Shown here: in pieces, positions 23,699-46,381 of the stretch | Layout: every line of letters begins with the position of its first letter | Numbering within the stretch: the first letter of the stretch is position 1 | Position numbers and translations under genes: made by a program | From: Verrucomicrobiota bacterium | GTDB lineage: Bacteria; Verrucomicrobiota; Verrucomicrobiia; Limisphaerales; SIBE01 | Length of the DNA stretch: 64,000 nt | Direction: 5' to 3' | Assembly: GCA_016209525.1 (NCBI GenBank) | Contig: JACQWK010000125.1 | Location: forward strand, 377-64,376 | The notes under the pieces: generated by a model | Told to the model about the DNA's origin: nothing | Database searches by the model: none | What the model saw: the letters and a program-made list of their open reading frames with translations, nothing else

Positions 23699-23726
23699 GG
23701 TTCTTATTCCTTCGAGAATTCGGCAT

Positions 23727-26700
23727 TCACAGATTCAGCCGAAGGCGCACGAAGAATACACGCTCGCGCGGCAGTTCCGACACGGCGCTCAAAGGCGCAA
23801 GTCTGTAGTCGTCGTCGAGCAGGTTCATCACTCCAAGCGAGAGTTCTCCGTATTGCCGAGGAAAGCGCCAACCGGCTTCGAGATCGAACTGCGCATGTTG
23901 TTCGTCGTGTTCCGCTGCAATCCGGGCGACTCCGTTGATCTCTCCCGAATCCTTCTGCCACCACCACAAAGCCATGGCCCGTCCGAACCAGCCGTTGGCC
24001 GCGTTGAACAACGCCTGCAAGCGCAGCGTGTGCATGTCGGCTTCCTCGGCCGACGTGAACGTCATCGACGGTATGTCTCGATCCAGTTGAGCGCGGCTGA
24101 GCTCGTACTTCCCGCCGAAAGACCAGTTTGCGCCGACCAGTTGATTGACTGTGAACTGGATCGCCTGTTCCTCGTATCGTAAGAATTCGATCGTCTGACC
24201 GGGTTGCCCAGGAGGGGCCCAACTGAAACTGGGGTCGAACTCGAACAGACCTAACGTCCGATCCACAGCCGACCGTGTGATGGTCGCTTGCGCGCCAAGG
24301 AAAGTCCGCGTCGGCAGCTTCACGTCGAGCGCCAGACCGCCAAGATCGAGCCGATGCCCGCTGACCGAACCGACGATTGACTCCGGAATCACCGTGCGAA
24401 ACGCCTGGCTGAAGCCGGCCAGTTGCACGGGTTCGAGTCGGTAGCTTTCGTCGAAGCTCACGCCACCGAGCGACTGAGCGAACATGCCGCGCACCGACAG
24501 TGAGTCCGTCGGACGCCAGATCAGCGCCGCCTTGGGCAGAAGACGCGACTGATCGACGCTGCCTCCGCTGATGGGGGGATGCCTGAAGTTCCGAGGTGAA
24601 TCGAGCGTATCATATTGAAGTCCCGCAGTGAACGATAGCCGTTCCAGTGCTTGCCAGGTGTCATAGGCGTACAAGGAAAGTCGCGAGAATTCCTCGCCGA
24701 TCACGGCGTCATGAAACACGCCGGTGCCCGCCGTATCACCGAAAAAAGAGGAAACCCTGGGATCGCCTGTGAGCCGGTCGCTGGTGGTGAACTCCCCTAC
24801 CTGAACGCGCCCACCCGCAACCAGCGTATTACTATTGAATTGGGCAATGTGGTTGAGTTCACCCATGTAGGTTTCGAAGCGCCCTCGATAAGCGAGGTCG
24901 AGGAGCAGGTCCTGTGGATTTGCCGGGCTGCCAACGAGCACCGTCTTCGTTGTCCCGAGATCCCGAAAGCGCTGGTCATTTTCAAGCCGGCCAGCCAGCG
25001 CCAACGTCTGGTGACCGGGCGACCACTCATGACGCCATATCCCGATGGCAATAGGTTCTTGCCTTTCATCAAATCGGAAGTGCGGCCGGGGGTTGGCGGG
25101 GTCGCGATACTGAAAATTGTCGCCCGATTCATAATCCTGGAACTTCGTCAGCAGGAGTGCCGTATCCGTTCGTGAGATCTGCTGTTTGATTTGCGCATAA
25201 ACCTCAATGCGCTCGAGATCGTTGTTCGGACGCACTCCATCGTTGTGCTGGAAATCCAGATCGACCGCGTAGGCCGAACGGCCAAACACTCCGCTTTGCG
25301 TGGCCAACTGACGAAACTGCCCGTCACTCCGAGCCTCGCCGAATGACGACAAAAAGAAGCCGTCACGCGCGAACAACCGGGTGTATTCCTGGTGCGTCAA
25401 GCCGGGGGATAGGATGCCGGAATCGACGGGTGCCAGCGCATTGGCCAGGAGCAGCTCGTTGAACCACGCGGTTTCGTAGCGCAGATTAAAGCGGGTTGGG
25501 TCACGAAGTGCGTTGAAACTATCCGCCAGAAAGAGATGCGCGGACGGATTCGCGTAGTCGTAAGACACGGCATGAGCGGCCTCGCGCAGCGCGACTTCGG
25601 GCATGCCTGCCCGCAGATAAAGCCGGGCAAGGCTTGTGGCACGGACGGCGCGGTCTTGATCCAGCAGCAACTGAGAACGGTAAACCGCGCGATTGTCGTT
25701 GAGCTTAAGCGAACGCTCCAGGTCAGCGATAGCCTCGTTGACTCGATTCTGCGCGTATAGATCAAGGGCAGAGTAAAGCCACGGAGTCGGATCATTTGGA
25801 TCCAATCCCCGGGCCAACTCAAGCTGCGCCTGGGCGTGCTTGATGTCGTAAGTTTCCGCAAAGGCCTTGCCGAGATAACTGCGCAAAAGAGATCGGTTGC
25901 CTCCCACCAGCGCAGCCGCCTGAATATCATCCAACCCCGCGCGCTTTTCCCCCGCGCGAAACCAGAGCAGTCCGCTCCCGAGCCAGCCTTCCGGCAGCAT
26001 GGGATCGAGGTCGCGCGCCTTATCGAAGCTCAGGCGCGCTTCGTCGATTCGGTTCTCCGCCGCCAACACGAAACCGCGCATCGCGTAAGCAGCGGCGTGC
26101 TCAGGGCTATTGGCCAAGGCTTTGTCCAGGGCCTCGCGCGCCCGACGCAGCCTACCGAGGCTGAATTCCAGCTCGGCGAGCCGAGCCAGGGCAAGGCCAT
26201 TGGTCGGCGAGTAGGCGACAGCCTGAAGCGCAGCGTCTCGAGCCAGTTCAAGGCGATTGGTCATGCCCGTTCGGGCCTGCAACCAAAACGACCGTCCCAG
26301 CCAGGCAGTCGCCGATTTTCCAGGGTCATTTGTGACCATGTCGGTGTGTGCCACCACGGCGATCAGCTCTCTCAGACCTCGGACCGTTGGAGAGTCCGCC
26401 TGCACTTGATTGAGGAGCGCCGAGGCGTCACCTGCCTCCCCGGCGGCCAGGCGCAACGCTGCGTAATAAGTCCTGCCGGCGTCCGTCAATTGGGGGAGAG
26501 TCGTGGGAAACTCTCGCCCTGCGGCACGCAGGTTGCCCCGCCGCCATGCGTCCAACGATTGGGCGAAGTTCGCCGCCTCATCCGGTGAAAACTGAAGTTC
26601 CCGCGTGTCGAGGATGGCCGGATAGTAAAGCCACCACTGGACTCGGTTCGTGGCCAGGAGTGCAAACTGCGGAGAAACTTGGTTGGTCTCCAGAATCCGT

Positions 26701-27137
26701 GGCGTTTGACCCTCTTCGGCAATCCCGACTTGGCCCGAGGCAACTTCCACCGTTCCGTTCGTATTCCACAGTCTCACCGTGCCATCAAAGACCCTCACCA
26801 GCGTCCGGCGTGGTCCATTGGATTCCACCAGAACTTCATACTCCGTGTTGATCGCTCCGGCGTTAGCGTAAGGAGTTTGAACCTGTGTGCCCGGCCTTCC
26901 CGTGGCAAACAAACTGACCGCCCCCCAAAACAATTCCATGAAGCTCGGCTTCTTGCGATCGGGCTTGTAGGAGCTTTGCTCGCGCACAACCGCAACAACA
27001 CGGTTCGTAGCCACCAGAACCTCGCGCTCTCCTATCCTGGTTTCCTGCTTGACCTCTTGTGAAACCACATCCAGGGAGATTACGAAGGAAATCACACAGG
27101 CGAAACGAGGCCACCCGAGGATGAATCGCGTCTTCAT
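23727..27137 (-). CDS. outer-membrane protein: signal peptide, FecR-like domain, TPR array, TonB-dependent-receptor-like beta-barrel
   Basis: 1136 aa. FecR-like region at aa ~80-145 ('TLVRVFDGTVRLWNTNGTVEVASGQVG'). About 350 aa of TPR-like helices. C-terminal barrel motifs ('LSFTAGLQYDTLDS', 'LPKAALIWRPTDSLSVRGMFAQS', terminal 'FFVRLRLNL'). The start codon overlaps the upstream stop as ATGA at 27134-27137. Confidence 0.75.
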   Translation of the reverse strand: MKTRFILGWPRFACVISFVISLDVVSQEVKQETRIGEREVLVATNRVVAVVREQSSYKPDRKKPSFMELFWGAVSLFATGRPGTQVQTPYANAGAINTEYEVLVESNGPRRTLVRVFDGTVRLWNTNGTVEVASGQVGIAEEGQTPRILETNQVSPQFALLATNRVQWWLYYPAILDTRELQFSPDEAANFAQSLDAWRRGNLRAAGREFPTTLPQLTDAGRTYYAALRLAAGEAGDASALLNQVQADSPTVRGLRELIAVVAHTDMVTNDPGKSATAWLGRSFWLQARTGMTNRLELARDAALQAVAYSPTNGLALARLAELEFSLGRLRRAREALDKALANSPEHAAAYAMRGFVLAAENRIDEARLSFDKARDLDPMLPEGWLGSGLLWFRAGEKRAGLDDIQAAALVGGNRSLLRSYLGKAFAETYDIKHAQAQLELARGLDPNDPTPWLYSALDLYAQNRVNEAIADLERSLKLNDNRAVYRSQLLLDQDRAVRATSLARLYLRAGMPEVALREAAHAVSYDYANPSAHLFLADSFNALRDPTRFNLRYETAWFNELLLANALAPVDSGILSPGLTHQEYTRLFARDGFFLSSFGEARSDGQFRQLATQSGVFGRSAYAVDLDFQHNDGVRPNNDLERIEVYAQIKQQISRTDTALLLTKFQDYESGDNFQYRDPANPRPHFRFDERQEPIAIGIWRHEWSPGHQTLALAGRLENDQRFRDLGTTKTVLVGSPANPQDLLLDLAYRGRFETYMGELNHIAQFNSNTLVAGGRVQVGEFTTSDRLTGDPRVSSFFGDTAGTGVFHDAVIGEEFSRLSLYAYDTWQALERLSFTAGLQYDTLDSPRNFRHPPISGGSVDQSRLLPKAALIWRPTDSLSVRGMFAQSLGGVSFDESYRLEPVQLAGFSQAFRTVIPESIVGSVSGHRLDLGGLALDVKLPTRTFLGAQATITRSAVDRTLGLFEFDPSFSWAPPGQPGQTIEFLRYEEQAIQFTVNQLVGANWSFGGKYELSRAQLDRDIPSMTFTSAEEADMHTLRLQALFNAANGWFGRAMALWWWQKDSGEINGVARIAAEHDEQHAQFDLEAGWRFPRQYGELSLGVMNLLDDDYRLAPLSAVSELPRERVFFVRLRLNL

Positions 27138-30100
27138 TCGGGAGGCAGGAGAATCGCACGTAAGAACGCCTGACCGGCGAGTTCTTGCACCGTCAAGGGG
27201 ACGGTCTGCGGGCTATTGGTCAGTGTCAGCGTACGCAGCGTCCGCCACGGTTCGGCCAACTCCAGCGAGTGCCGAATCTCGATTGCGTATTTCCAATCCA
27301 GAGCGCCCAAAAGCTCCAAGCTCTGCGCGGGGTTGAAACGCAAAATGGGCGGCCAGCCGTAACTCGCTCGGTAGGCCTGATCCTGTCCTGCGACCAAGTT
27401 AATCGTCGTGGTTTTTGGTGTCTGGTAGCCAGGCACTGGTTTGAACTCCAGGCTGTAGTCCACGCCAGTGGGCAGAATCCGGCTGGCTTGCACGGCATTC
27501 GTGAATTCCATCGACGGGATTTCTTTGAGATGCCAGGCAGCGCCAGCGGTTACCGCGGCAGCAGGTTCCAGTGTCACGCTTAGCGTCTGGAAGCCAAACG
27601 TGGCGGCACCAACAATCGGTGAATTGAAGACAAATACTCCGCCGCCCGTGAAGTTAGTTCCCAAATCGGCCGATGAGGCCGCCCGGTTGATCAGATCGGC
27701 GACCCGGCTGTCAATCGCACGAACCGTGGATCGTCCGTCGTGGGAACCGAGATAAACGGCCGCGGGGAAATACGTGCGATTGGTTGCGGGGAACGGGAGC
27801 ACGAAGAGCGGGCCTCCGCTGTTGCCCGGAAAACTGAGGAAATCCGCTGTTGAATAAAGGCATCCCCCTTCAGGAACAAAACCGTAGTTGCGAGCCTCCG
27901 TCTCAAACATACGTCCGTCAGCTTCGCCCGTGAGAGGATAACCTGCGAGGAACTTCTCTCCGGAGACGCCCTCTGGTCCCAACAACCATTCGTTTATCTC
28001 CGCATCAGATAATAAGAAGCCGCTTTCACCGTCGCGTGCCACGGGCTGGTCAAAATAAATCGCGGCGATATCCCATTGTTGTGAGGCTCGTGAGGAAACG
28101 CCAGGTTTCAACCCTTGTTCCCGCTCCTTCCGGCGCTCGATCAGATACTGGTCCATCACATACCATCCGAGCCCCCTCATTGGCCGGGATTCATAGTCAC
28201 CAGCGTGCCGTTCGTGGAACCACTCGACCGATGTCACGAAGTTCGTAGTCGAATCGTCAAAAAGAACGTGTGTTGCGGTGAGCACGACCTTCTTCCGAAC
28301 GGCAATGCCGCTTCCCCAGCCGAGAGGTGTTCGAAGCTGGCCAACCAACGGCAACGGACGCTTAAGCGTGGTCCTGGTCGCGAGCGCATCCTCAATCTCG
28401 GCGTAGCTGAGTACAGGCCGTGCGGTGCGCCTCCCTGGAGGAGGTGCAGGCTCATAATCCACACGGACGATATTGTCCACACCGGAAACGAGCGTGACCA
28501 GCCGAGCAGGTGGAGTCAGCCAGTCTCTCACCGGGCGACATTCGATAATGTTGGTGGCACCCGCTGGCAGTCCGGTCCACGGGTACCCACTGGGCAGATA
28601 GCCCAGCTCGCCTCGGAGCCGCCAACCTGCGTCCAACCTGTGCACCTCTGGGGGCTCAATCATGACGATCAGGGAGCCGCTATCCCGCGCCAGCCTACTG
28701 GCGTAGCGCGCGATGCGGCCTGTCACCTCTTTATTTAGGACCGGAATAATCGCAGCAGGTGGTTCGTCAAATCCGGCAATAGGGCGAAATTGAATCGCAT
28801 AATTCCCGACGTCGAGATTGCCGAGAGTCTGGCCGCTGGAATGCCACACCAGCTCCCACGGCAACCTCCAGCCCCCGCGTTCTGCTGCCGGAGCCTCGAT
28901 AGTCACCCTCAATGCGCCGCTTGCGGTGCGTGCATTCGGCGGCACGAGCCTCATGAACGATGTCGGCATCGCCGGCACTTCGTCGTCCGTGATGGAGACC
29001 GTGGCGATGCTTGGCGCGCCCAGCATCGCGCCGTTTGAAGGAGAACTAAGTGAAATCGTCAGTTCTCTGGTGCGATCAAGCACAAAGTTATCAAGCAGCC
29101 TGATTCGAATCTCCTTAGTGTCTTCGTTTCTGGCAAAATCCAAGCGGCCCGGCTCCAGGAGATAATCACGCCCGGGAACGGCAGTTCGGTCGCTCACAGC
29201 ATAACTCACACTGGCAACCGAGTTGCCGGTTCTCAGCACCGGGATTTTGAGCACACCCGCACTCTCGTTGGTTTGAAAGGAATCCTGACTGAAGCGAACA
29301 ATAACTGGATCGTTCACCTCCAGCTTCGCATCGGTGCTCGCGGCTGATCCGACCAGATTGCTTACAACTACACCATAGGTGCCACTCTCTGGTTTCTGCA
29401 CCTTCTTCAGCACGAGTGTCGAATTTGTCGCTCCGATGATGTCAACTCGGTCCCTTCGCCACTGATAGCTCAAAGGCAGCGTGCCGGTAGCCGCTACCGA
29501 GAAGGTAACATCCGAGTCCACCAGGACAGTTTGGCTTTGAGGCTGGACGGTAATTGAAACTGGAACCGCGTAATCTCCCAAGAGGCTGATGACATACGGA
29601 GATTGCGCCCAGTCGTTCGGCGTCTGCGCACCGATGCCGTAAAGCCGACCGTCGAGCTCCACAACGGAACTAAATCCGTGGGCCATTTGGAACGGGCTCT
29701 CTATCTTTCCTTCCGATGCTGGAAACATGCGGATCACTCCATTCCAGAGAGAGAGGAAGTAAGCCCGGCCTGTTTGAGAAAAGTAGTCCGAGCGGCCCGC
29801 GACGCCTTTTGATCCCCGCGGGTCAACGAAAGGAAGAGTCCAGTCCACGCCGTTGGTTGTGCTCCAAAGGCCCAACGACACCACGACCCGATCTGGAATC
29901 ATGACGGATGAAGCGTACAGATAGTCCTGCGTTGGTACAAAACCTTGGAGGGCGAATGGCTGAAAACCTCGAACCAAGCTCCAATTGATTCCATCGACCG
30001 TTCTAAAAAGCTCGGATGATCTGGAGATTTCCTCACTAGTCGCAACGTACAAATGCCCCTTCCACTCGGTCATCGCGACAATTAGTTTGTTTGGGCCACC

Positions 30101-32104: not shown

Positions 32105-32151
32105 CTCATGTTCTCTCTCATCTGGTGCCGGACTAGGCCGTCAGCGGCGAC

Positions 32152-35100
32152 TTATTGCTGCCATTTGGCTCGATAGTATCCGGCTGAGTCGGTCGGCCAA
32201 GGTGGACCAATCGCGAGGACCGGGTTCACCTCCAACGTAACCGTCTGGACTTTCGTCCATGCCGCCGCTGGACCTAGCACCGGCGTAAACTCAATCTCTA
32301 CGACTTTACCGACTGGACCGGAAACGAATATGCCGTTCCCTGTCGCCGTCAGAACCGGCGTGGTGCTTTCGTAGGTTACGGTTAGACCCGCGTCTTGCCC
32401 TTCGGGCAGATTGACCGGGAAATTCGTCGGCGTTAGCCAGCCGGGCACCGATTTGAATTCCACTGTGTAATTGGTGCCTGAAACCAGGTCCGTCGTTGCT
32501 TCGGGCAAACTGGTGAACGCGCCGCCTTTCTCACTGACTCGCCAGCCCGCGCCTGCAGCGACCGCCTCTTGTGGTTCCAGCCGGACGGTCAATTTCTGAA
32601 TCCCAAATCGGGCACCCGCCACCGCCGTGTTGAACACGAGCACGCCGCCGCCGGTAAAGTTTGTGCCGAGATCAGCCGATGAGGCGGCGCGCATGATCAG
32701 TTCAGCGGCCTGGCTATCGATGCTTCTGAAGACCGACAGTTTATCTGCGGTTCCCAGATAGACTGCGGCTGGGAAGTAGGTGAGTGAATTGGTGTAGAGA
32801 ACGCACAAAGGACCGCCGCTGTTGCCAGGAAAACTGCTGATTTCGGACGTCGAGAAGAGCTGGTTGCCGTCGTTAACGAACCGGTACTGGCGAGCCTCGG
32901 TGACGAAGAGTTTCCCGTCCTCATTTCTGCCCATTGGATAACCGGCCAGAAGCTTTTCGGAGTTACCTAGAATCCACTCGTTATCCAACGCGTCCGACAG
33001 AAGGAAGCCACTCCCGCCGTTTCGAGCAATCTGTTGGTCAAAGTAAATGGCTGCAATATCCCATTGCTGCGAGGCGCGAGTAGCAACCCATGAAGGTTTT
33101 CCCTCTTCTCGCTCCAATCGCCGTTGGCGCAGGTATTTTTCAAATACGTACCAGCCTTGGGCACGAATCGGGCGCGATTCATACTCCCCGACATGCAATT
33201 CAGGCAACCAATCAACCGACTCGACGAAATTGGTCGTCTCTTCGTCAAAAAGGACGTGCGCCGCCGTCAAGACAACCTTTTTTCGCACTGCGATTCCGCT
33301 GCCGAATCCAGCCTTGGAGCGAAGCTGTCCCACAAAGACAAGCGGTCGCCGAAGCGTCTCGTTCAGCGCTTCTCCTATTTCGACAAATCTCGGCACTGTT
33401 TGGGGAATGCGAGTCCCTGGTGCTAACGGAGAGGCGGGTTCATAAAACGCGGTCACGACGTTTTCCGCGTTGGGAAGAATAGTAACAAACCGTGGGGCAG
33501 GAGTGTACCAACCGTTCGTGGAGCGGAATTCCAAGATGTGATTAGTTCCGGAGAGCAAATCCGCAAGGCGAAAGCCGCTCGCTTGAAATTCGCTGTCGCC
33601 GCGTAAACGCCATCCCACTCCCGGCAACGCCTCATCTGGACCGAGACGGACGATCAGATTCCCTGTGGTCACTGCAGACAGAGCGCTAGTGTAGCGGACA
33701 GTTCGGCTCGTCGTTAATCTATCTTGAACAGGTGCTATAATCGCATTCGGCTGAACAAAGTTGGCGACCGCACGGAATTGAATTACGTAGAGCCCAACGT
33801 CGAGATTCGAAAGCGTGTGGCCACTCGAATGCCACGATAAATCCCAAGGCAGCCGCCACGCGGCCCCCGGTAATCCATTCGGCTCGATGGACACTCGAAC
33901 TGCGCCCAAACCGGATCGCGGTAGGGGCTCCCGAAGCATTGCAAATGACGTTGGAGTTAATGGCTCTTCATCGTCGCGAATCTCGATGATCGTCCTGTTT
34001 GGGGTGCCCAAAGTTGTTCCATTTGAAGGCAAACTCAGTTCGATCGTGAGTTGTCTGGGGCCGTCGAGAACAAGGTCATCCAGAAGCTTGACCTGAATCT
34101 CCCGGCTCTCTTCCTTGGCAGCAAAGTCCATGCGACCTTGTTCGAGGAGATAATCACGGCCCGGCTCGGCGGTTCCGCCGGTCACAGAATAACTCACGCT
34201 GGCTGGCTTGGCACCGGATTTCAGCACAGGAATTCTTAGCACGTGTGCATTTTCGTCAGCTCGAAATAAATCCTGGCTGAAGCGAAAGACATCTTCTGGA
34301 TTCGGTTTGGAACTGAGTGCGATGGTGCTAGAGGCTGTTCCAGCTCCCGCAGCCGTGTCGTTCACGGCGGAGACAACGGTGACGGAACCGTTGGCGGCCG
34401 TCAGATCGAAACGTAATCCGGCTTCACCTTGGGCGACCGTGATGAAGCTGCCTGCCGCGACTGGCAATTGACCATTCCCCAAGAACAAGTTGACATTGTT
34501 CGGTGCCCTAATGCGGAAGTGTGTCACTTCAAAACCATCGCGGGGATTTCGCCGAATAGTCAATGTGGATGATGTGTCGTGACTCGCGACCGGGGCGGCG
34601 ACGGTGGGAAGGAAAGCGAAGCTTGTTAGCGGGAGGCCACCAATCCTCACAGGGTAGCCGCTGTCTTCCCTTTCTTCCCCAAGGTGGTTACCGATCGTGG
34701 TGAAACTGCCCCCTGCATAGAGATCATCCCCGACGACGAGTAGGGCGGTCACACCAGAATCGGCCGTATTCGCAGTACCGGCGGGATGCGGGGCAAACGA
34801 CGGGTCGTAAGAACCATCGGTCTTGCTGAGCCTAATCAAGCCTCCACCTTCATTCTGAAGTTCGTAGCCCCCGATGAAGACATTTGTTTCGTTCACACCT
34901 AGTGCATAGATCAAATTAAGGGTGACGTTAGGTGCGAAGAGAGGGTCCGCCTCACCCGCCCCAAACTTATTGAGCTTGGCGATCGCCCTCCGCTGTTGTC
35001 CTCCGATGACGTCGAACGAACCTGCGCAAAAGACATAGTTCTCGCCGACTACCAACGAATAGACATGGCCTGCACTATCTCGGAACAGATCCCAAGGCCG

Positions 35101-37161
35101 GGGATCCCACATTGGATCAACCGCAATAGGTGCGGAAATACTAATTCTGGCGAGGTTGGTGCGGGGAACGCCCCCAATCGACTCAAAGAAGCCACCGACG
35201 TAGAGGTTCGTTCCATCCACGGCGAGTGCGCTTGCTGCCGAGCCACCACCAGTCATCGGGGTCCACAACGGATCAGCGCTGCCATTCCCCTCTGTGTTGA
35301 TCTTTACCAATTCTCCCAAGTTCATTCCACCAACGGTGCCAAGACTTCCGGCGATGAACAGGTTAGTGCCACTCAATGCAATGCTAAGAATTTCAAATTC
35401 CGACATTCGCCTTGAGATTTTAGGGTTCCAGGCAGGGTCGGAACGATCTGATACGAGCGAATCGAATTTCGCGACCGCGTTTCTCGAATTGCCGCCGATT
35501 GTAGCAAACGCTCCGGCTACAAAGAATGCCGATTCATTGCCGACAATGGCGGTGACAACACCGTTGGGATCTGGTCGCCAGTTGGAATCGAGCCTCCCGT
35601 CAGTATTGATTCGCGCGAGATGAAGGCGTTTCAGACCTTGGGCACTAAGGAAATCACCCCCGACTACAATCTTGCCGTCGGGTTGTCTATAGATCGCGTT
35701 CACTCTCCCCGGAGACTCTACTTGGGTTGGAAATGACGAATCATACCTGCCGGTGACGGAATCCAGCTTCGCGAACCCTAGCACTTGCAGATCGTCCACC
35801 TCCGTAAACTGTCCCCCAGCAGCTATTAACGAGCCACTGGACGCGATCGTCTGAACGCCGGACAGTCTCGGCATCCACTTGTCGTCTGCAACTCCTGAGC
35901 CTGTGGTGCCGATTCGTGCGATGTTGGTCAGGCTCCGCCCGCCGATTTGAACATAGTTACCGATTACAATCAGATTTGTCCCTGAAATGGAGAGGAGCCA
36001 CACATCTCCGGTAGAACGATATTCATCCTTTGGCTGGGGATCCCAGGCGGAATCGAGTGAACCGCTGCCGGTGGTCGAGACCTTTGCAAGATTTCGACGG
36101 TTCTGCCCGGCAATGCTCCCAAAATACCCCGCGACATATAGATTGTCCGCATCCGATGCAATGGAATTGACCTCATGGTAGAATCCTCCTGGAGTGAATG
36201 GATTTGGTACCCAAAGAATGTCAGCAGCCCCGGTACCTCCAGCACTCAGCTTGGCAAGGTTCGTTCGAGCTCTTCCACCGATGAAGTCGAAATTCCCTCC
36301 AACGAAAAGGTTCGAGCCAACGAGAGCGAGCGAGTTGATTCTGGGAATTACATATCCGCTTTCACCTGGCTTGGAAAAGACGGCTGGATTTGGTTTCCAG
36401 ATAGGATCGGTAGCTCCGACACCTTGCAAGGCCACTTTGGCGAGGTTTGTGACAGAATTCTGACCTCCGATTTCCAAGAAATACCCGCCCACGTAGAGGG
36501 AGTCTTTGTCGGCGATCATGCAGTAAATCTCAGCCGATGCAGGTTGCCCTCCGATTGGATTCGGTGCCCAGTTCGGATCTGACTCTCCACGGCCCCCGAT
36601 GGAGACTTTGGCCAACCCATTACGGATTGCACCCTGAACGCTTCGAAAACTGCCTCCCACGTAAAGATTGGTGCTGACTAGGGCCATGCAATTCACCGTC
36701 CCACTGCCACCCCCGCCCGAAATGCCACTAAGGCCCGGATCCCACGTAGCGTCCATGGAACCATCCTGATTGAGGCGCGCCAGATTACGGCGCGGCACGC
36801 CACTCACGGTAAAGAAATCGCCACCAATGATCATCTGCCCATCGGGTTGAATCACGATGGCCTTCACGACCCCGCCTTTGGACAGATTCAGATTCGGTAA
36901 CGTTGATGGATGTGTTTGTGCCGAAGCGGCTCCGTTCGAGAATATGAACCACGCAACGAGGGTCAATCGAACTGCGTGCAACGCCAACGCGCGAAAGCAC
37001 GCGAGTTGTGACCGCGCAATCCGTTTACCGACCGCAAGGTAGCTTAACGTGGATCCTAGACGAATTGAGCAACTGGCCGAATCTCGAGGTAATGCTCTCA
37101 TTTCACTGTCCCCTTTGGGTTGCCGTGGCTGGACACGAGTTGTGATGCTCATTCTCACCAT
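32152..37161 (-). CDS. giant secreted protein P2: delta-60/DUF5122-type beta-propeller repeats plus the shared Calx-beta / beta-sandwich / serine-protease C-terminal module
   Basis: Repeats such as 'GGDFFTVSGVPRRNLARLNQDGSMDATWDP'. Same C-terminal module as P1 and P3 ('LTAAHVLF', 'QWDIAAIYF', 'FPGNSGGPLCV'). Candidate starts at 37161 (overlaps the P3 stop), 37152 or 37101. The hydrophobic signal region is 'LTLVAWFIFSNGAASA'. Confidence 0.85.
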   Translation of the reverse strand: MVRMSITTRVQPRQPKGDSEMRALPRDSASCSIRLGSTLSYLAVGKRIARSQLACFRALALHAVRLTLVAWFIFSNGAASAQTHPSTLPNLNLSKGGVVKAIVIQPDGQMIIGGDFFTVSGVPRRNLARLNQDGSMDATWDPGLSGISGGGGSGTVNCMALVSTNLYVGGSFRSVQGAIRNGLAKVSIGGRGESDPNWAPNPIGGQPASAEIYCMIADKDSLYVGGYFLEIGGQNSVTNLAKVALQGVGATDPIWKPNPAVFSKPGESGYVIPRINSLALVGSNLFVGGNFDFIGGRARTNLAKLSAGGTGAADILWVPNPFTPGGFYHEVNSIASDADNLYVAGYFGSIAGQNRRNLAKVSTTGSGSLDSAWDPQPKDEYRSTGDVWLLSISGTNLIVIGNYVQIGGRSLTNIARIGTTGSGVADDKWMPRLSGVQTIASSGSLIAAGGQFTEVDDLQVLGFAKLDSVTGRYDSSFPTQVESPGRVNAIYRQPDGKIVVGGDFLSAQGLKRLHLARINTDGRLDSNWRPDPNGVVTAIVGNESAFFVAGAFATIGGNSRNAVAKFDSLVSDRSDPAWNPKISRRMSEFEILSIALSGTNLFIAGSLGTVGGMNLGELVKINTEGNGSADPLWTPMTGGGSAASALAVDGTNLYVGGFFESIGGVPRTNLARISISAPIAVDPMWDPRPWDLFRDSAGHVYSLVVGENYVFCAGSFDVIGGQQRRAIAKLNKFGAGEADPLFAPNVTLNLIYALGVNETNVFIGGYELQNEGGGLIRLSKTDGSYDPSFAPHPAGTANTADSGVTALLVVGDDLYAGGSFTTIGNHLGEEREDSGYPVRIGGLPLTSFAFLPTVAAPVASHDTSSTLTIRRNPRDGFEVTHFRIRAPNNVNLFLGNGQLPVAAGSFITVAQGEAGLRFDLTAANGSVTVVSAVNDTAAGAGTASSTIALSSKPNPEDVFRFSQDLFRADENAHVLRIPVLKSGAKPASVSYSVTGGTAEPGRDYLLEQGRMDFAAKEESREIQVKLLDDLVLDGPRQLTIELSLPSNGTTLGTPNRTIIEIRDDEEPLTPTSFAMLREPLPRSGLGAVRVSIEPNGLPGAAWRLPWDLSWHSSGHTLSNLDVGLYVIQFRAVANFVQPNAIIAPVQDRLTTSRTVRYTSALSAVTTGNLIVRLGPDEALPGVGWRLRGDSEFQASGFRLADLLSGTNHILEFRSTNGWYTPAPRFVTILPNAENVVTAFYEPASPLAPGTRIPQTVPRFVEIGEALNETLRRPLVFVGQLRSKAGFGSGIAVRKKVVLTAAHVLFDEETTNFVESVDWLPELHVGEYESRPIRAQGWYVFEKYLRQRRLEREEGKPSWVATRASQQWDIAAIYFDQQIARNGGSGFLLSDALDNEWILGNSEKLLAGYPMGRNEDGKLFVTEARQYRFVNDGNQLFSTSEISSFPGNSGGPLCVLYTNSLTYFPAAVYLGTADKLSVFRSIDSQAAELIMRAASSADLGTNFTGGGVLVFNTAVAGARFGIQKLTVRLEPQEAVAAGAGWRVSEKGGAFTSLPEATTDLVSGTNYTVEFKSVPGWLTPTNFPVNLPEGQDAGLTVTYESTTPVLTATGNGIFVSGPVGKVVEIEFTPVLGPAAAWTKVQTVTLEVNPVLAIGPPWPTDSAGYYRAKWQQ

Positions 37162-40100
37162 TTGGCTCGGTAGTATCCGGCTGGGTTGGGCGTCCAAGGC
37201 GGCCCGATGACGAAAACAGGGTTTGCTTCCAGCGTAACCGTCCGGACTTTCGTCCATGACGCCAGCGCACCCAGAGCTGGGGTAAACTCAATGTCCACCA
37301 CTATACCGACCGCACCGGAAACAAAAAGGCCGGATGAAGAAGCAATCCATCGGACGGGCAGTGCTGACGGGTCGCGTTCGTACGTCACCGTCAGTTCGGC
37401 ATCCTGGCCCTCAGGCAAATTTACGCTGAAATTCGTGGGAATTAGCCATCCGGGGACCGATTTGAATTCCACGGTGTAATTGACGCCGGATACCAGGTCT
37501 GTTGTCGCCTCGGGCATACCGGTGAATGCGCCGCCTTTCTCACTGACTCGCCACCCAGCGCCCGCGGCGACTGCCTCTCGAGGTTGCAGGCGGATGGTCA
37601 ATTTCTGAACCCCAAACCGCACACCCGGCACCGGCGGGTTGAGCACAAGCACACCGCCACCGGTGAAGTTCGTGCCGAGTTCCGCTGAAGAAGCGGCACG
37701 ATTGATCAGTTGCGCCACCTCGCTGTCGATGGCGCGAACGACGGATCTGTCATCCAAGTTCCCAAGATAGACGGCCGCTGGGTAAAATGTGGGATCACCC
37801 ACTGGCCCCGCGAGCACGCAGAGCGGTCCGCCGCTGTTGCCCGGATAGCTGACAAATTGAGAAGATGAAAACAAGCGGCCACTCGCGCGGGCAAACAGGT
37901 ACTTACGCGACTCGATTGCATGAAGCCGGTTGTCCGCTTGTCCAGTGAGCGGATAGCCTCCGAGGAAACTGACCTTCGCGGTGGCCAGCCATTCGTTGTC
38001 GGTCGTGTCCGAGAGCAGGAAACCGCTTTCGCCGTGCAGAGCGATATCCTGGCCGAAGTAAATTGCGGCGACGTCCCATTGTTGCGAAGCTGGAGTGGGC
38101 CCGCTCGGAGGAATCCGTTCGCGTTCCGACCGGCGCTGCTTGAGGTACTCCTCAAACACAGCCCATCCTATCGCGCGAATAGGACGTGGATCGTAGTCGC
38201 CTGCGTGGAGTTCGTGGTGCCAAGTGATTTCGGAAACGAGATTCGTCGTGCTTTCATCGAAGAGCACATGGGCAGCCGTAAGAACGACTCGCTTCCGCAC
38301 GGCGATGCCGCTGCCATAACCGGCGGCAGACCTTAGCTGTCCCATCAGTGACAGCGGACGGCGCAACGGCTCACTCACACCATCCTCGATGGCCTGGTAG
38401 GTGCGGAGAGGGACTGGCTGGTACACTTCAGGGGCGACCGGCTGCGCGGGGGAATAGGTGGCGGTGACCACGTTGTCTAGATTCGCCAGCACGGTAACGA
38501 GCCGTGCGGGTGGAGTGGTCCAGTCTCTCACGGCCTGGAACTCCAAAATGTAATTCGTGCCCGGTGGAAGATTCCCTAGCCGGTAGGCGTTCGTGAAAAA
38601 GCTTCTTTCGCCGCGAAGCCGCCAACCTGGGCCGGGCACGGGCGCGTGCAGGACTTCCGGTGGGCCGATGCGAACCACCAAGCTACCCGATGGCCGCGCC
38701 GCGTCGCGCCGGTAAAGGAATGTGCGGACCGTGGGATCACGCTGGTTGAGCACCGGAATTTCCTCGCTGATCTCCGGCTCACGATAGTCTGCGATGGGCC
38801 GGAATTCGAGCGGGTAATTGCCTACATCGAGGTTGCCAAGGATTTCGCCGCTTTCGTGCCAAACCAGTTCCCAAGGCAACCGCCACGCGGCATTGGTGGC
38901 GACTGTGGGCTCAAGATAAACCTGTAATCGGCCAGTTGCCTTCCGGTCCTCGGGGAGAATCAACTGGGCAAACAATGTCGGCGTCACAGGCTTTTCGTCG
39001 TCGATGATGAAAATGGTGGCGACATACGGCATGCCCAGCGTGGCGCCATTCGAAGGTGAGGTAAGCGTGATGGTCAGTTGCTTTGTCCCGTCGAGGATGA
39101 AGTCATCAAGGAGCGTGAGCAGAATATCCCGGCTCTCTTCATTGGCGCCGAAGTTCAGCCGCCCCGGTTCGAGGCGATAGTCGCGGCCAGGTTCAGCGGT
39201 CCCGATGGTCACCGAGTAACTGACCGCGGCCACCGCAGCACCGACCTTGTGCACGGGGATTCTGAGCAAGCTTGCGTCTTCAGTTGTTTCCAGCACGTCC
39301 TGACTGAAGCGAAAAACAACATTCACCTCCAAGCTCGCGTCGGCGCTTGTGACTTGCCCTGCGGAATTGCTAACAACGACGCTGTAATTGCCGGCGTCCG
39401 TTTTCTGTACGCTCGGCAATATGAGTGTCGCGCTCCTCGCGTCTGGAATATTGACCCCGTCCTTGCGCCACTGGTAGCTCAATGGCAGCGCGCTCGTAGC
39501 CGTGACAGTGAGCGTGACATTGGTTCCCGCAGGAACCATCTTGCCTTGCGGCTGGGCCGTGATCGTCGGTGGCCCGAAAACTGTAATCGAGATCGGAGCT
39601 GATGTTCTGGTCACGCCAGAATCATCCGTTGCCGCCACCGTCAAAGTGTGAGAACCAGCCGGCGCATTAGTCCAGGCATTGGTGTAAGTGCCGCTCACAC
39701 TTGCGTTGGTCGCGATGCTAATCAGATTGGACGTGGAATTGGTCGCAGCGAAGAATTCGACTCGCGTAACTCTCCCGTCGGAATCTGAGGCGGACGCGGC
39801 GATGGGAATCGCTTGTCCGACGAAGAAGGTCTCGCCATTCGTGGGTGCGACAATGCGGACGATCGGGGCCAAGTTGGTCGGCCACGCTGGCACCGCGGGT
39901 CCAATCAGCCGCCAGGTTCCCTCCACCGTCAACGGTTTCGACCCCGCCCGGATAACCAGATTCGTTCCCTCCAGAAATCGAAACTCCACTGATTGGTCCG
40001 AGCGCTGCACCACCAAGTCCATCTTCTTATCTCCGTCCATGTCCAACGGTCGAACCACCTGCCAATTCCCATCCGCCGCCTCCACGGGCTTCAACCAGAT

Positions 40101-42971
40101 ACTCTCCACCCACTTTGTCCCCTCCATCCTCCAAATCGCCAAGCTCCGGTCTTTGCCCGCCAACAAAATGTCGTCCCGGCCATCTCCACTGAAATCCGCC
40201 ACCCCCACTGCAATCAGCCCCGCCTCTGGAACGCTCGGATTGGTCAGGGTCGCATTCGTGAGCGTCATCCCTTCCATTAGCCACACCGCCAAAGTCCCGT
40301 CCTCATGCTGAAACAGCAGGTCGGTCTTGCTGTCCAGATTGAAATCCCCCGTCCCTGCCACCCGCCAACGCTGGTCCCCTGGATTCCGGGGCTCTATCAG
40401 CCCGCCCGTCCTCTGCCTCGTCTGATTCATCAACCATATCGCCAACGTCCCCTCCTCATCCTGAAACAGCAAGTCCGGCCGCAAATCCTGGTTGAAGTCT
40501 CCCGTCCCCACCAGCCGATAGCTCGCATCGCTCTTGTCCGGCACAAGGAACCCTCCTGAAGCCCGATTGGTCCCGTTCATCAGCCAGACCCCAAGGTAAT
40601 TCTCCGCATCTTGAAATACCAAATCCGACAACCCGTCCAGGTTGAAATCGTCTTTGGTTTCCGAATTGACTTTCAACTCAAACGCACTGCTCGCCTTCGC
40701 AAGCCCGTCGCTCACGGTAACGGTAATCCTGACAGTGCCCTTCTGCTGGGGAGCCGGATTGATGATCATCGTCCGGTTGGTCCCGTTCCCCAGCACAACG
40801 ATGTTCGTGCTCGGGACAAGCTGCGGGTTGGAGGATATGCTCGCCACGACCAGGTTGGTGACCGGCGTGTCTGCGTCGGCCACGGTAAAGCCAATCTCTT
40901 TCGTCGCTTTGTCCACATAGGTAATCTGATCTGGGATGAAGGAAATCCTCGGCCAAACATTGGTCGGAAAAGCCGGTCCAATCAGCCGCCAGGTTCCCTC
41001 CACCGTCAGCGGTTTCGACCCCGGTCGGCTAACCAGGTTCGTTCCTTCCAGAAATCGAAACTCCAGCGATTGGTCCGAGCGCTGCACGACTAAGTCCGTC
41101 TTCTTGTCTCCGTCCATGTCCAACGGTCGAACCACCTGCCAATCCCCATCCCCCGCCGCCACGGGCTTCAGCCATACAGTCCCTACCCGGTTGGTCCCCT
41201 CCATCTTCCAAATCGCCATGCTCCGGTCTTTTCCCGCCAACAGAATCTCGTCCCGGCTCTCCCCGGTAAAATCACCCACCCCGACCGCAAACAAACTCTC
41301 CTCCGGAATGCTCGGATTGGTCAATGATGCATTCGTGAGCTTCGTCCCGTCCATGAACCACACCGCCAGCGTCCCGTCCTCATGCTGAAATAGCAGATCC
41401 GTCTTGCTGTCCAGATCGAAATCCCCTGTCCCCGCCACCCGCCAACGCTGGTCCCCAGGGTTGCCTGGCGCCAGAAATGATCGACTCATCCGGTTGGTTC
41501 CCTGCATGAACCAGACCTCCAGAGTTCCGTCTCCAAGGTGCAAGAGAAGGTCGGGCTGTAGATCCTGGTTGAAGTCTCCCGTCCCCACCAGCCGATAGCT
41601 CGCATCGCTCTTGTCCGGCACAAGGAACCCTCCTGAAGCCCGATTGGTCCTGTTCATCAGCCAGACCCCAAGGTAATTCTCCGCATCTTGAAATACTAAA
41701 TCCGACAACCCGTCCAGGTTGAAATCGTCTTTCGGACCAGGAACAATCGTAAGCTTCGCAGCTTGGCTCATGGCTCCTCCGGCGTTATTCCTAACACTCA
41801 CAATGTAATCACCCGAGTCCGCCTTCTTCACCCCCGTCATGGTCAGTATGGAGTTCGTCGCTCCAGGGACATCGCTACCATTGAATTGCCACTGATAGCC
41901 CAAAGGCGGCAAGCCCAAGGCCGTCACGTACAAAGTCACGTTTGCTCCCCGGACAGCGGTCTGGCTTTCCGGTTGAAAAGAGATTGTCGGCGATTGCGCG
42001 GATACGCTCACAGCGTAAACTGTCGCGCCAAAGTTCGCTGGCGTGCCGCCGTCAATCACGATCAGGGACGCTGACCAGGTGCCGTCGATCTTGCGGATCC
42101 AAAAATCATCAGGGCTTGATCCGGTTGCAGGAGTGCTAGCGAGGAGCAGGCCCATGTCCTCGTTGGTATCGATGCCAGTAAACACGACCGTCCAAGTGAA
42201 CGTGTCTGGCACCGTCAGCGAAAGTCCCGCCGCACGTTCGGAGGAGAAGCCCTTTTTCAGCGAGAACGCACTGCTTTTGTAGATCGGCGCGGAACCTGGT
42301 CTCCCATCAGGGCCATCGTTTGGATAGATTCGAAGTTCGCCGCGTTCGTCACCATTGGCGTTGTCGCTGAGGTAGTAATCGAAGAGAAAGTCGGTAACTC
42401 GCCACCGCCCAGTCCCCTTACCCGAAAGGAAGACTTGATCTCCAAATTCGAAGCCGTTCCCCAGAGAAAAGTAGTTCTTAGGTGGGATGCTCTGGTTCTC
42501 ATAAACGACCTGGGGACCAATCGGGGGTCTTTCGACTATCGTAACCTCAAAACTGACATTGGTACTCAGAGATCCGTCTGAGACTGAAACCATGATCTTC
42601 GCCGAGCCGGTTTGGCGCGGGGCGGGGACGATGGTGATGGTTCGATAGGTGCCCAAACCACCGAACGTGATGTTGCCATCGGGAATCATGTTAGGATTCG
42701 AGGATGTGCCGCTTAAAGTCAGTTCCTGCGGCGGAGTCGCATCGTCGCCGACTCTTACCAGTGCGACCGCAATGTCATCTACGGTGATGACTTTATCTGC
42801 GACAGGAGTGATCGTCGGCGGAGAGTTATTTCTGGAGGCGCCACGACTCGGCAGGCATAGGTTTTGAAGGACGATCAGGGCGATGATCAGACCAAACAAA
42901 GCTAGCCTTCTGGCAGTATCCGGCCAGTCTCTGGCCCGAACCACAACCGTGTGTGATGAGTCCCTTCTCAT
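37155..42971 (-). CDS. giant secreted protein P3: cadherin-like domains, Ig, two FG-GAP/VCBS-type repeat blocks, Ig I-set, plus the shared Calx-beta / beta-sandwich / serine-protease C-terminal module
   Basis: 1938 aa. N-terminal anchor or signal 'RRLALFGLIIALIVLQNL'. FG-GAP-like repeats ('DFNLDGLSDLVFQD..G.L.VW'). Protease triad context 'LTAAHVLF', 'QWDVAAIYF' and 'YPGNSGGPLCV'. SD-like 'TGAGGC' about 9 nt upstream of the ATG. Confidence 0.85.
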   Translation of the reverse strand: MRRDSSHTVVVRARDWPDTARRLALFGLIIALIVLQNLCLPSRGASRNNSPPTITPVADKVITVDDIAVALVRVGDDATPPQELTLSGTSSNPNMIPDGNITFGGLGTYRTITIVPAPRQTGSAKIMVSVSDGSLSTNVSFEVTIVERPPIGPQVVYENQSIPPKNYFSLGNGFEFGDQVFLSGKGTGRWRVTDFLFDYYLSDNANGDERGELRIYPNDGPDGRPGSAPIYKSSAFSLKKGFSSERAAGLSLTVPDTFTWTVVFTGIDTNEDMGLLLASTPATGSSPDDFWIRKIDGTWSASLIVIDGGTPANFGATVYAVSVSAQSPTISFQPESQTAVRGANVTLYVTALGLPPLGYQWQFNGSDVPGATNSILTMTGVKKADSGDYIVSVRNNAGGAMSQAAKLTIVPGPKDDFNLDGLSDLVFQDAENYLGVWLMNRTNRASGGFLVPDKSDASYRLVGTGDFNQDLQPDLLLHLGDGTLEVWFMQGTNRMSRSFLAPGNPGDQRWRVAGTGDFDLDSKTDLLFQHEDGTLAVWFMDGTKLTNASLTNPSIPEESLFAVGVGDFTGESRDEILLAGKDRSMAIWKMEGTNRVGTVWLKPVAAGDGDWQVVRPLDMDGDKKTDLVVQRSDQSLEFRFLEGTNLVSRPGSKPLTVEGTWRLIGPAFPTNVWPRISFIPDQITYVDKATKEIGFTVADADTPVTNLVVASISSNPQLVPSTNIVVLGNGTNRTMIINPAPQQKGTVRITVTVSDGLAKASSAFELKVNSETKDDFNLDGLSDLVFQDAENYLGVWLMNGTNRASGGFLVPDKSDASYRLVGTGDFNQDLRPDLLFQDEEGTLAIWLMNQTRQRTGGLIEPRNPGDQRWRVAGTGDFNLDSKTDLLFQHEDGTLAVWLMEGMTLTNATLTNPSVPEAGLIAVGVADFSGDGRDDILLAGKDRSLAIWRMEGTKWVESIWLKPVEAADGNWQVVRPLDMDGDKKMDLVVQRSDQSVEFRFLEGTNLVIRAGSKPLTVEGTWRLIGPAVPAWPTNLAPIVRIVAPTNGETFFVGQAIPIAASASDSDGRVTRVEFFAATNSTSNLISIATNASVSGTYTNAWTNAPAGSHTLTVAATDDSGVTRTSAPISITVFGPPTITAQPQGKMVPAGTNVTLTVTATSALPLSYQWRKDGVNIPDARSATLILPSVQKTDAGNYSVVVSNSAGQVTSADASLEVNVVFRFSQDVLETTEDASLLRIPVHKVGAAVAAVSYSVTIGTAEPGRDYRLEPGRLNFGANEESRDILLTLLDDFILDGTKQLTITLTSPSNGATLGMPYVATIFIIDDEKPVTPTLFAQLILPEDRKATGRLQVYLEPTVATNAAWRLPWELVWHESGEILGNLDVGNYPLEFRPIADYREPEISEEIPVLNQRDPTVRTFLYRRDAARPSGSLVVRIGPPEVLHAPVPGPGWRLRGERSFFTNAYRLGNLPPGTNYILEFQAVRDWTTPPARLVTVLANLDNVVTATYSPAQPVAPEVYQPVPLRTYQAIEDGVSEPLRRPLSLMGQLRSAAGYGSGIAVRKRVVLTAAHVLFDESTTNLVSEITWHHELHAGDYDPRPIRAIGWAVFEEYLKQRRSERERIPPSGPTPASQQWDVAAIYFGQDIALHGESGFLLSDTTDNEWLATAKVSFLGGYPLTGQADNRLHAIESRKYLFARASGRLFSSSQFVSYPGNSGGPLCVLAGPVGDPTFYPAAVYLGNLDDRSVVRAIDSEVAQLINRAASSAELGTNFTGGGVLVLNPPVPGVRFGVQKLTIRLQPREAVAAGAGWRVSEKGGAFTGMPEATTDLVSGVNYTVEFKSVPGWLIPTNFSVNLPEGQDAELTVTYERDPSALPVRWIASSSGLFVSGAVGIVVDIEFTPALGALASWTKVRTVTLEANPVFVIGPPWTPNPAGYYRAKW
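39870..41733 (-). repeat. internal tandem duplication inside P3 (two FG-GAP blocks of about 780 bp, period about 1078 bp)
   Basis: Blocks at about 39870-40655 and 40951-41733. Stretches such as 40560-40655 and 41639-41733 are nearly identical by eye. Confidence 0.7.
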
Positions 42972-44120: not shown

Positions 44121-44135
44121 GCAACCCCGCGGGGC

Positions 44136-46370: not shown

Positions 46371-46381
46371 GAGCCGTTTGT

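Follow-up and report, generated by a model that had tools for sequence, protein, structure and literature searches.

A conserved S1-protease module with variable N-terminal heads lies in one operon with an NsrA/CHASE2-type receptor pair in Verrucomicrobiota

The closest described counterpart of the locus analysed here comes from S. meliloti, where NsrA is an outer-membrane beta-barrel receptor with its barrel at residues 600-1200 (PMC7529298). NsrA and the CHASE2 cyclases CyaK, CyaD1 and CyaD2 are needed to perceive a protease-sensitive protein signal, for which the ribosomal protein uL2 is a candidate (PMC7529298, PMC13001267). Related clusters are known from Campylobacterota, in which a CHASE2 adenylate cyclase lies with a FecR-domain outer-membrane protein, a TPR protein and a phosphodiesterase (PMC9239204), and from Burkholderia, in which a LysM-FecR protein adjoins a CHASE2 histidine kinase (PMC5192318). 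The ligands of CHASE2 are still described as unknown (PMC10581220). Here we describe a 64,000-nucleotide stretch of DNA from a Verrucomicrobiota bacterium (contig JACQWK010000125.1, positions 377 to 64,376; hereafter the window), in which three large genes, P1, P2 and P3, join dissimilar N-terminal regions (heads) to a shared C-terminal protease module and stand upstream of the genes for an outer-membrane protein, P0, and a CHASE2 receptor with a Toll/interleukin-1 receptor (TIR) domain.

P0 and the CHASE2 protein are a variant of this known, poorly understood trans-envelope signalling pair. What is new here is the combination of an NsrA/CHASE2-type system with a proposed protease arm and a TIR as its output, centred on an undescribed multi-domain module. 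In our literature searches, which also covered CHASE2 in Verrucomicrobia, no paper described this system or connected a P0/CHASE2-type pair with proteases or with TIR as the output. An earlier note, made from the sequence of the window, had suggested that P1-P3 might represent one enzymatic activity targeted to three different ligands. The operon that they form with P0 and the CHASE2-TIR gene, together with the conserved linkage of these genes elsewhere, likely moves their role from that of free-standing targeted proteases to that of a component in trans-envelope signalling. In our tentative reading, P1-P3 form the variable arm that does the extracellular recognition and cleavage in a trans-envelope sensing system of the NsrA/CHASE2 type, here with TIR output; we give this reading a probability of roughly 0.45.

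The five genes (P3, P2, P1, P0 and the CHASE2 gene, in that order) are co-directional, all on the minus strand, and span 21458-42971 (Table 1). The start of P0 overlaps the stop of P1 by 4 nt (ATGA), and the gap between P0 and the CHASE2 gene is 28 nt. P1-P3 are the upstream part of one operon that continues into P0 and the CHASE2-TIR receptor. A promoter and terminator scan of 20500-24000 returned counts that were not above those of shuffled sequence.

P0 has Pfam matches to FecR, TPR repeats and a TonB-dependent-receptor-like barrel. Its AlphaFold2 (AF2) model, with a predicted local distance difference test score (pLDDT) of 87.5, shows a signal helix, a FecR sandwich at ~30-150, a TPR superhelix at ~185-570 and a barrel at 593-1136. 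The likeness to NsrA of the S. meliloti NsrA-CyaK/CyaD1/CyaD2 system lies in overall length (~1150-1220 aa) and in domain order, with FecR at the N-terminus, TPR in the centre and a barrel of ~550-600 aa at the C-terminus. A tblastn search of PLSDB with P0 gave matches at TPR level only, and one weak match among them led to an Ensifer megaplasmid gene encoding a 1222-aa FecR-TPR-barrel protein, the stop of which overlaps the start of a CHASE2-cyclase gene and which has a 68%-identical orthologue on pSymB of S. meliloti 1021. Both the rhizobial NsrA-type gene and P0 are found immediately upstream of, and coupled to, the gene for a CHASE2 inner-membrane receptor. Garnerone and colleagues reportedly placed nsrA directly upstream of cyaK in 2018, which agrees with the layout of the Ensifer/S. 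meliloti locus.

Compared with NsrA-CyaK, the window has a SARM1-like TIR and an additional HNH-like N-domain in place of a cyclase, and giant propeller-protease genes stand in its operon, whereas the rhizobial locus (L078) shows none. The Campylobacterota cluster likewise groups a CHASE2 receptor, a FecR outer-membrane protein and TPR (PMC9239204), but in the present system FecR, TPR and barrel are fused in one protein, a phosphodiesterase is absent, protease paralogues and a further family (fam4, described below) are added, and the output is variable.

The barrel of P0 matches Fiu, FptA, FpvA, FecA and OprC in Foldseek (E 1e-14 over ~600 columns), with target-normalised template-modelling scores (TMt) of only 0.45-0.56. 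These are 22-strand TonB-dependent transporters, and the strand number is taken from the matches rather than from coordinates. Such a barrel could belong to a protein-nutrition locus resembling a polysaccharide utilization locus, in which the heads would hold protein or glycoprotein substrates at the surface, the S1 protease would degrade them, the peptides would enter through P0 and CHASE2 would report their availability. The window is also rich in glycoside hydrolases (the GH92 and alpha-galactosidase genes of Table 1), and a FecR-like domain beside a transporter-like barrel recalls FecA/FecR signalling, an established form of trans-envelope nutrient signalling. However, no Plug domain (PF07715) was matched in P0 at E 0.01, the barrel being preceded instead by FecR and TPR, and the 77 related loci introduced below show no recurrent TonB/ExbBD, peptide permease or peptidase genes. 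A SARM1-like TIR and an N-domain shared with effectors would be odd in a nutrient sensor, and the homologous architecture in S. meliloti is a signal receptor rather than a transporter (PMC7529298). On balance a nutritional role seems unlikely to us.

In the receptor, Pfam places CHASE2 at 233-513 of the 746-aa open reading frame (ORF), and phmmer against the PDB identified a TIR domain at ~590-735 (E 2e-13 to the TIR domains of SARM1 and TIR-1). The window motif 'EDWVRQE' aligns with 'KDWVHKE' of SARM1 and retains the Glu, which we take to be the catalytic E642 of SARM1; the TIR output is presumably an NADase. Based on hydrophobic segments assigned by eye, the N-domain and TIR would be cytoplasmic and CHASE2 periplasmic. 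The database gene call for this locus (573 aa, CHASE2 and TIR_2 in Pfam) leaves out the N-domain, a Cys/His-rich, HNH-like region at residues 1 to ~180 ('CRRRCCLC...QIAHIDDDPSNASEDNLVFLCLRHHNQYDS'). This region shares 42% identity with the N-terminus of a metallophosphatase-domain protein, P0343, and 35% with P0346, and is therefore real coding sequence, common to different effector proteins; it looks like a mobile adaptor or effector-associated domain. Pfam returned only HNH_3 at E 0.049 for it, and the PDB and NCBIfam returned nothing, and we use the label 'HNH-like motif' only. PADLOC, run on the module, P0 and the CHASE2 protein, gave only marginal ThsB-like TIR matches (E ~0.03-0.05); the locus is not a catalogued defence system.

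Outputs differ between related receptors. Among 19 CHASE2 proteins scanned (17 from related loci, plus those of the window and of Ensifer), nine carry a cyclase, six a Ser/Thr kinase and two a TIR recognised by Pfam, and jackhmmer found the window TIR in three loci (L043, L046 and L056). A constant periplasmic input with a variable output is what a sensor looks like. In L080, the closest relative, the CHASE2-TIR gene is followed at 15178-17526 by a gene for an RyR/TPR-S/guanylate-cyclase protein that has no counterpart in the window; this protein could work with the TIR output as a downstream partner.

The linkage of protease, P0 and CHASE2 genes is conserved across Verrucomicrobiota. We searched the ORFs of 77 related loci, many of them on truncated contigs, with the window proteins and found P0-like genes in 27 and CHASE2 genes in 17. 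In the 22 loci with complete 10-kb flanks, P0-like genes occurred in 12 (55%), CHASE2 genes in 7 and either of these in 13, and 10 loci held at least two module genes. All-against-all clustering of the ORFs from the 77 loci left four recurrent real families, namely the module proteins, the P0-like proteins, the CHASE2 proteins and fam4, the remainder being shadow ORFs. Compact operons of outer-membrane protein, protease and CHASE2 genes are seen, for example, in L011, L020, L035 and L064, and L080 has the same order as the window (protease, P0, CHASE2-TIR). When the search was started from P0 homologues, CHASE2 was directly downstream in all three pairs sampled and a module protein was present in two. 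The fam4 proteins, which have no Pfam assignment, are ~390 aa long with an N-terminal transmembrane segment followed by a helical region. They occur in 25 loci (e.g., L014:117-1301, L080:562-1698 and L034:5916-7136), 12 of them among the 22 fully flanked, and their genes are mostly divergent and lie between the P0-like and protease genes.

The earlier note had proposed that P1-P3 share a collinear C-terminal block of about 725 aa, and this was borne out, with its coordinates holding to within ~15 nt. BLASTP with the low-complexity filter off aligned P1 and P2 over 751 aa (50% identity, 662 bits), P1 and P3 over 809 aa (51%, 748 bits) and P2 and P3 over 722 aa (60%, 822 bits). As E = 0 in all three pairs with the filter off, low-complexity similarity is ruled out as the source of the block. 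The composition given in the note was also recovered in all three proteins. The module, ~720 aa long, runs collinearly from a Calx-beta domain through two Trp-rich sandwiches, an S1 protease and a third sandwich to a tail, and starts at the Calx-beta 'RFSQD' motif (29294-96 in P1, 34282-84 in P2 and 39309-11 in P3).

In all three proteins Calx-beta (PF03160) exceeds the Pfam cut-off of 27 bits, with scores of 74.3, 58.7 and 53.0, and in the AF2 model of the module it matches the integrin beta4 Calx-beta domain (3fq4; Foldseek TMt 0.89). The three sandwiches are homologous to one another (hhalign probability 99.0-99.7%) and unrelated to Calx-beta and to the tail in profile-profile comparison. 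A Pfam search at E 10 on the sandwich repeats and the tail gave nothing credible, and the Trp-rich sandwich is an independent, unnamed repeat domain. The tail, put at about 110 aa in the note, is shorter at ~70 aa by the AF2 model (module residues 651-720). The translations of P1-P3 end in ...AGYYRAKW or ...FLRAILLPPE, without a transmembrane-plus-Arg tail, and the family consensus end in a 62-sequence alignment is '...FYRAxxLP'. Searches of these C-termini (Pfam at E 10 on the tail; NCBIfam) found no PEP-CTERM, type IX secretion system C-terminal or autotransporter sorting domain.

Each of the three proteins carries the catalytic motifs TA[AT]HV, WD[IV]AA and PGNSGGP, and the triad (H350/D415/S495 in module numbering) is invariant across 62 aligned family members. 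With its triad intact and invariant, the module looks catalytically competent; the note had already listed His, Asp and Ser as intact in each copy. A PDB sequence search with the protease domain gave no meaningful match, and the S1 fold was therefore established by way of AF2 and Foldseek. The model of the 720-aa module (pLDDT 88.8, predicted template-modelling score 0.74) matched E. coli YdgD (7uxg), S. epidermidis Esp (6pym) and Bacillus glutamyl endopeptidase (1p3c), all with probability 1.0 and TMt 0.64-0.74 (0.74 for 1p3c); further matches included factor XIIa, hepsin and others. By its modelled fold the protease is an S1 (clan PA) enzyme with a V8/Esp/YdgD-type double beta-barrel, in line with the S1/V8-like assignment of the note. 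Six positions ahead of the catalytic Ser stands a Leu, Ile or Val residue, which in the motif alignment suggests a specificity that is not trypsin-like.

The module protease shares with the S1B-type (V8, Esp, glutamyl endopeptidase) and YdgD-like proteases the His-Asp-Ser order, the TAAHV and GNSGGP motifs and the double beta-barrel. Unlike V8 and YdgD, it sits between three copies of the Trp-rich sandwich, after a Calx-beta domain. It also lacks a free N-terminus, which V8-type enzymes use for activation.

The heads differ in their propellers. Pfam finds six NHL repeats and an immunoglobulin-like (Ig) domain in P1; DUF5122 repeats (delta-60 in NCBIfam) in P2; and seven FG-GAP_3 repeats with Big_9, Big_7 and Ig in P3, where a supposed cadherin domain proved to be a bacterial Ig (Big_9). 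The six NHL repeats agree with the architecture proposed for P1 in the note, but the second propeller placed after them is a putative one, with Reg_prop matches at E 0.002-0.07. The heads had been called unrelated to each other, and this is true of NHL, DUF5122 and FG-GAP but not of the whole: Ig domains common to P1 and P3 are the sole head similarity among the three proteins (BLASTP), and an I-set Ig lies directly upstream of Calx-beta in both. Because P1 and P3 have this I-set Ig in common, the boundary of the shared block differs by pair.

The pattern of a constant enzyme behind a variable head holds family-wide. We searched 1.84 billion cluster representatives (50% identity) exhaustively with a profile, and 4864 of them scored at E < 1e-30. 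The best 150 of these all had E < 1e-188, and nearly all carried the full module, mostly at the C-terminus, in proteins usually of ~1100-5400 aa, with some shorter ones that are probably partial. A word-indexed search had retrieved 83 relatives with varied N-terminal Pfam content, and a scan of GTDB with one genome per species confirmed 230, almost all in Verrucomicrobiota metagenome-assembled genomes, often several per genome, from Pedosphaera, Chthoniobacteraceae, Verrucomicrobiaceae, Opitutales, Haloferula and Luteolibacter. The module thus defines a large unnamed family that is essentially restricted to Verrucomicrobiota. Literature searches (Calx-beta/NHL/trypsin-like in Verrucomicrobia) found no description of it. 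The length upstream of the module has a median of 987 aa. Propellers in 50 head regions comprised NHL (25), DUF5122 (10), RCC1 (5) and FG-GAP (3), beside Calx-beta (21), Big_7 (13) and Flg_new_2 (8), and L080 has a head of LVIVD repeats.

Two further features were seen among these proteins. In other giant proteins (P0204, P0215, P0228, P0316 and others) the sandwich region forms tandem arrays of up to ~23 stretches, and the Calx-beta region of up to 58. In L060, L062 and L073, two protease modules apparently lie in one polypeptide of up to 5027 aa.

Several lines of evidence bear on how the heads and modules have diversified. In a neighbour-joining tree of module sequences, P1-P3 fall in one clade with the homologue P0001, to which P1 is sister. 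The N-terminus of P0001 looks FG-GAP-like by eye (FDLDGRPD motif), its Pfam matches being only Ig and Calx-beta. The module tree does not track head type, and this supports recombination between heads and modules, i.e., head swapping. In P2 and P3, the last ~180 aa (third sandwich and tail; the 3' ~550 nt) are mostly 73-84% identical in nucleotides, with one window of 66%, against mostly 45-63% elsewhere in the block and up to 72% in the Calx-beta domain. In its third sandwich and tail P1 diverges from both of them, with only 17-40% aa identity. The mosaic identity of P2 and P3 suggests gene conversion or a 3' segment that came to be shared recently. In addition, the head of P3 contains a tandem duplication at 39895-41732 (minus strand; period 1077 nt, copies 88-90% identical in a repeat search), which covers an FG-GAP propeller unit and places near-identical peptide blocks ('KDDFNLDGLSDLVFQDAENYLGVWLMN...') twice in the translation. 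This duplication is recent and internal to the head.

Such modular giant exported proteins, in paralogue arrays and with recombination at a domain boundary, resemble polymorphic toxin, contact-dependent inhibition and Rhs systems. As the earlier note observed, the polarity is reversed in P1-P3, with a variable N-terminus and a constant C-terminus, but the comparison serves only as a contrast, and the constant part is an ordinary hydrolase. Pfam and NCBIfam found no toxin domain and no type V, VI or VII secretion delivery domain in P1-P3. There is no small ORF after P1, P2 or P3 (P1 runs into P0), although immunity genes were not specifically searched for.

The same diversification could nevertheless be that of secreted or surface adhesin-protease effectors directed against competitors, predators, phage or host matrices, with P0 as their exporter or anchor, its TPR as a docking scaffold, and CHASE2 regulating deployment. 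TPR followed by a C-terminal barrel is the layout of the outer-membrane export scaffolds PgaA, BcsC and PelB. P1 and P0 are translationally coupled; head swapping and gene conversion among arrayed paralogues are reminiscent of surface or effector families that diversify; and a constant tail, with its consensus end, could serve as an export or docking tag. Against this, the P0 barrel resembles those of transporters and receptors, and its characterised counterpart NsrA is a receptor (PMC7529298). The tail is not constant, given the divergence of P1. Many module genes are far from any P0 gene, and the tight, universal pairing is that of P0 with CHASE2 rather than with the protease. We consider an effector function quite improbable.

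Returning to P1-P3 as the arm of a sensing system, we envisage that the heads, composed of beta-propellers and Ig-like domains, would capture different extracellular or surface targets and so confer binding specificity, and that the module protease would then cut the target, its own chain or a co-factor. P0, the barrel-FecR-TPR protein, would relay the protein or peptide cue so produced to periplasmic CHASE2, which would switch on the cytoplasmic effector, a TIR here and a nucleotide cyclase or Ser/Thr kinase in sister loci. Head swapping, gene conversion and duplication within a head, along with the array of paralogues itself, would diversify sensing while the signalling interface stays constant. 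This appears to be the most economical model, since the constant part of P1-P3 is the likeliest to touch constant partners, variable propellers are binding platforms, the operon partners are an outer-membrane protein of receptor type and a sensor whose outputs can be exchanged, and the cue in the studied system is a protein. The protease sensitivity of the NsrA signal also fits a link to proteolysis. The domain architecture, the triad, the S1 fold, the C-terminal position of the module, the operon structure and the synteny are observed; what we infer is that the proteins are exported past the inner membrane, that the heads bind ligands, that information flows from protease through P0 to CHASE2 and that the TIR acts as an NADase.

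A number of observations weigh against this reading. About 40% of the fully flanked module loci have neither P0 nor CHASE2 within 10 kb, and one of the three sampled P0/CHASE2 pairs has no module gene; the proteases are therefore not obligatory partners. Taken with the size of the P0 family (at least 2868 homologues, far more than the 83 module relatives first retrieved), these loci are what one might expect if ordinary paralogous secreted proteases merely happened to lie beside a signalling pair. Such chance adjacency is, however, extremely unlikely, given co-occurrence in 55% of loci within 10 kb and across many genera, the overlapping start and stop codons of P0 and P1, the protease gene inserted between the outer-membrane protein and CHASE2 genes in several operons, and the same gene order in the closest relative. 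Among the other points on the negative side, fam4 was not found in the window by tblastn or with a hidden Markov model. BLASTP of P0 against the rhizobial protein showed weak similarity (22% identity, 425 aa, E 2e-8) in the repeat-rich FecR/TPR part only, the barrel being unaligned. Pfam Trypsin_2 (PF13365) reached only 25.4 bits in P2 and 22.8 in P3, under the cut-off of 27.6, and had no match in P1, which makes the protease a divergent subfamily. Lastly, synteny does not set the direction of signalling, and the receptor could equally regulate the proteases or respond to envelope damage.

The location of the module proteins also counts on that side. The only export signal visible in them is a Sec-type signal peptide, no outer-membrane secretion or anchoring signal having been found, so that they could be periplasmic. 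They might then be regulatory proteases of the site-1 type, with propellers that monitor envelope or periplasmic ligands and an S1 domain that switches the receptor on by cutting either the ectodomain of CHASE2 or P0 in its FecR/TPR part. Regulated proteolysis controls FecR-family signalling elsewhere, and the operon couples the proteases to P0 and CHASE2. The top structural match, YdgD, has no annotation beyond that of a putative serine protease; we take its location in E. coli to be periplasmic. Yet these proteins have the Calx-beta, I-set Ig, FG-GAP, NHL and Big domains and the sizes (up to >5000 aa) that typify proteins at the surface or outside the cell, and a single cleavage event needs no three or more paralogues with different heads. 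A periplasmic regulatory role is very unlikely in our estimation.

The arrangement invites comparison with Drosophila Toll/Spaetzle, by analogy only. Recognition modules are tied to extracellular S1 proteases in both, and both have a membrane receptor with a cytoplasmic TIR. The systems are not homologous: the window ectodomain is CHASE2 rather than a leucine-rich repeat, and its TIR is SARM1-like, of the enzyme type rather than the adaptor type. A speculative extension, which we consider a long shot, is a modular extracellular surveillance system of Verrucomicrobiota forming a one-step analogue of the arthropod Toll or clotting cascades. Interchangeable propeller heads would act as pattern recognition on a constant S1 protease, proteolysis set off by the target would produce or free a protein cue, the cue would pass through an NsrA-like outer-membrane transducer, and CHASE2 would fire a TIR NADase (a cyclase or kinase in sister loci). 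If true, this would provide the first defined class of natural input for CHASE2, whose ligands are those described as unknown (PMC10581220). CHASE2 is a widespread bacterial sensor with NsrA/CyaK as its only worked example (PMC7529298), and head-swappable proteases linked to the same pair offer a testable signal source. By joining a periplasmic sensor domain to a SARM1-like TIR, the receptor ties envelope sensing to the NAD+-based outputs usual in anti-phage defence. For annotation, an unnamed multi-domain module and a new Trp-rich sandwich repeat can be assigned in thousands of giant Verrucomicrobiota proteins now labelled 'hypothetical' or 'NHL repeat'.

Table 1. Positions of the array genes, module parts and neighbouring features in the window
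Feature	Position	Strand	Description
P3	37155-42971	-	ORF 1938 aa; signal peptide, Big_9-type Ig, unassigned region, Ig, FG-GAP propeller, Big_9, second FG-GAP propeller, Big_7, I-set Ig, constant module (ORF list, Pfam, translation)
P2	32152-37257	-	ORF 1701 aa; signal peptide, DUF5122/delta-60 propeller repeats, constant module
P1	27134-32104	-	ORF 1656 aa; signal peptide, six-repeat NHL propeller, Ig, unassigned beta-rich region (maybe second propeller), I-set Ig, constant module
P0	23727-27137	-	1136 aa; signal peptide, FecR beta-sandwich, TPR superhelix, TonB-dependent-transporter-like beta-barrel
CHASE2 receptor	21458-23698	-	ORF 746 aa; HNH-like N-domain, transmembrane helix, CHASE2, three transmembrane helices, SARM1-type TIR
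P3 constant module	37158-39317	-	720 aa
P3 Calx-beta	38988-39317	-	module part
P3 sandwich 1	38703-38954	-	module part
P3 sandwich 2	38442-38702	-	module part
P3 S1 protease	37674-38420	-	His 38268-70, Asp 38073-75, Ser 37833-35
P3 sandwich 3	37368-37622	-	module part
P3 tail	37158-37367	-	module part
P2 constant module	32155-34284	-	Calx-beta to end; His 33256-58, Asp 33058-60, Ser 32818-20
P1 constant module	27137-29296	-	His 28268-70, Asp 28070-72, Ser 27818-20
144-aa ORF	44346-44780	-	Rep-like 'EHYHWLI' motif
191-aa ORF	44989-45564	-	weak helix-turn-helix and weak IS607-like matches
AsmA/DUF748 protein	4941-8873	-	neighbouring gene
CHAD-domain protein	16514-17482	-	neighbouring gene
He_PIG-alpha-galactosidase	17807-19414	+	neighbouring gene
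CBM-GH92 mannosidase	46515-49838	+	neighbouring gene

The ORF limits in Table 1 probably exceed the true genes at two 5' ends. The P2 ORF runs at its 5' end into the end of P3, and its true start is therefore probably Met33 (37161) or Met53 (37101). That of P1 is probably Met68 (31903) or Met72 (31891), just ahead of the hydrophobic signal sequence. The neighbouring AsmA/DUF748, CHAD, alpha-galactosidase and GH92 genes are typical of a glycan-degrading Verrucomicrobiota genome.

Upstream of P3, the 3.5 kb at 43000-46500 have a strongly negative GC skew and no convincing long gene. A scan of this region found no tRNA and only weak helix-turn-helix and weak IS607-like matches. It may be a decayed mobile element, at the position held by fam4 in sister loci. 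At the other end of the array, just past the CHASE2-TIR gene, two plus-strand ORFs (19858-20265 and 20156-20650) overlap in different frames and read like one frameshifted gene, which may be a pseudogene or reflect a sequencing frameshift.

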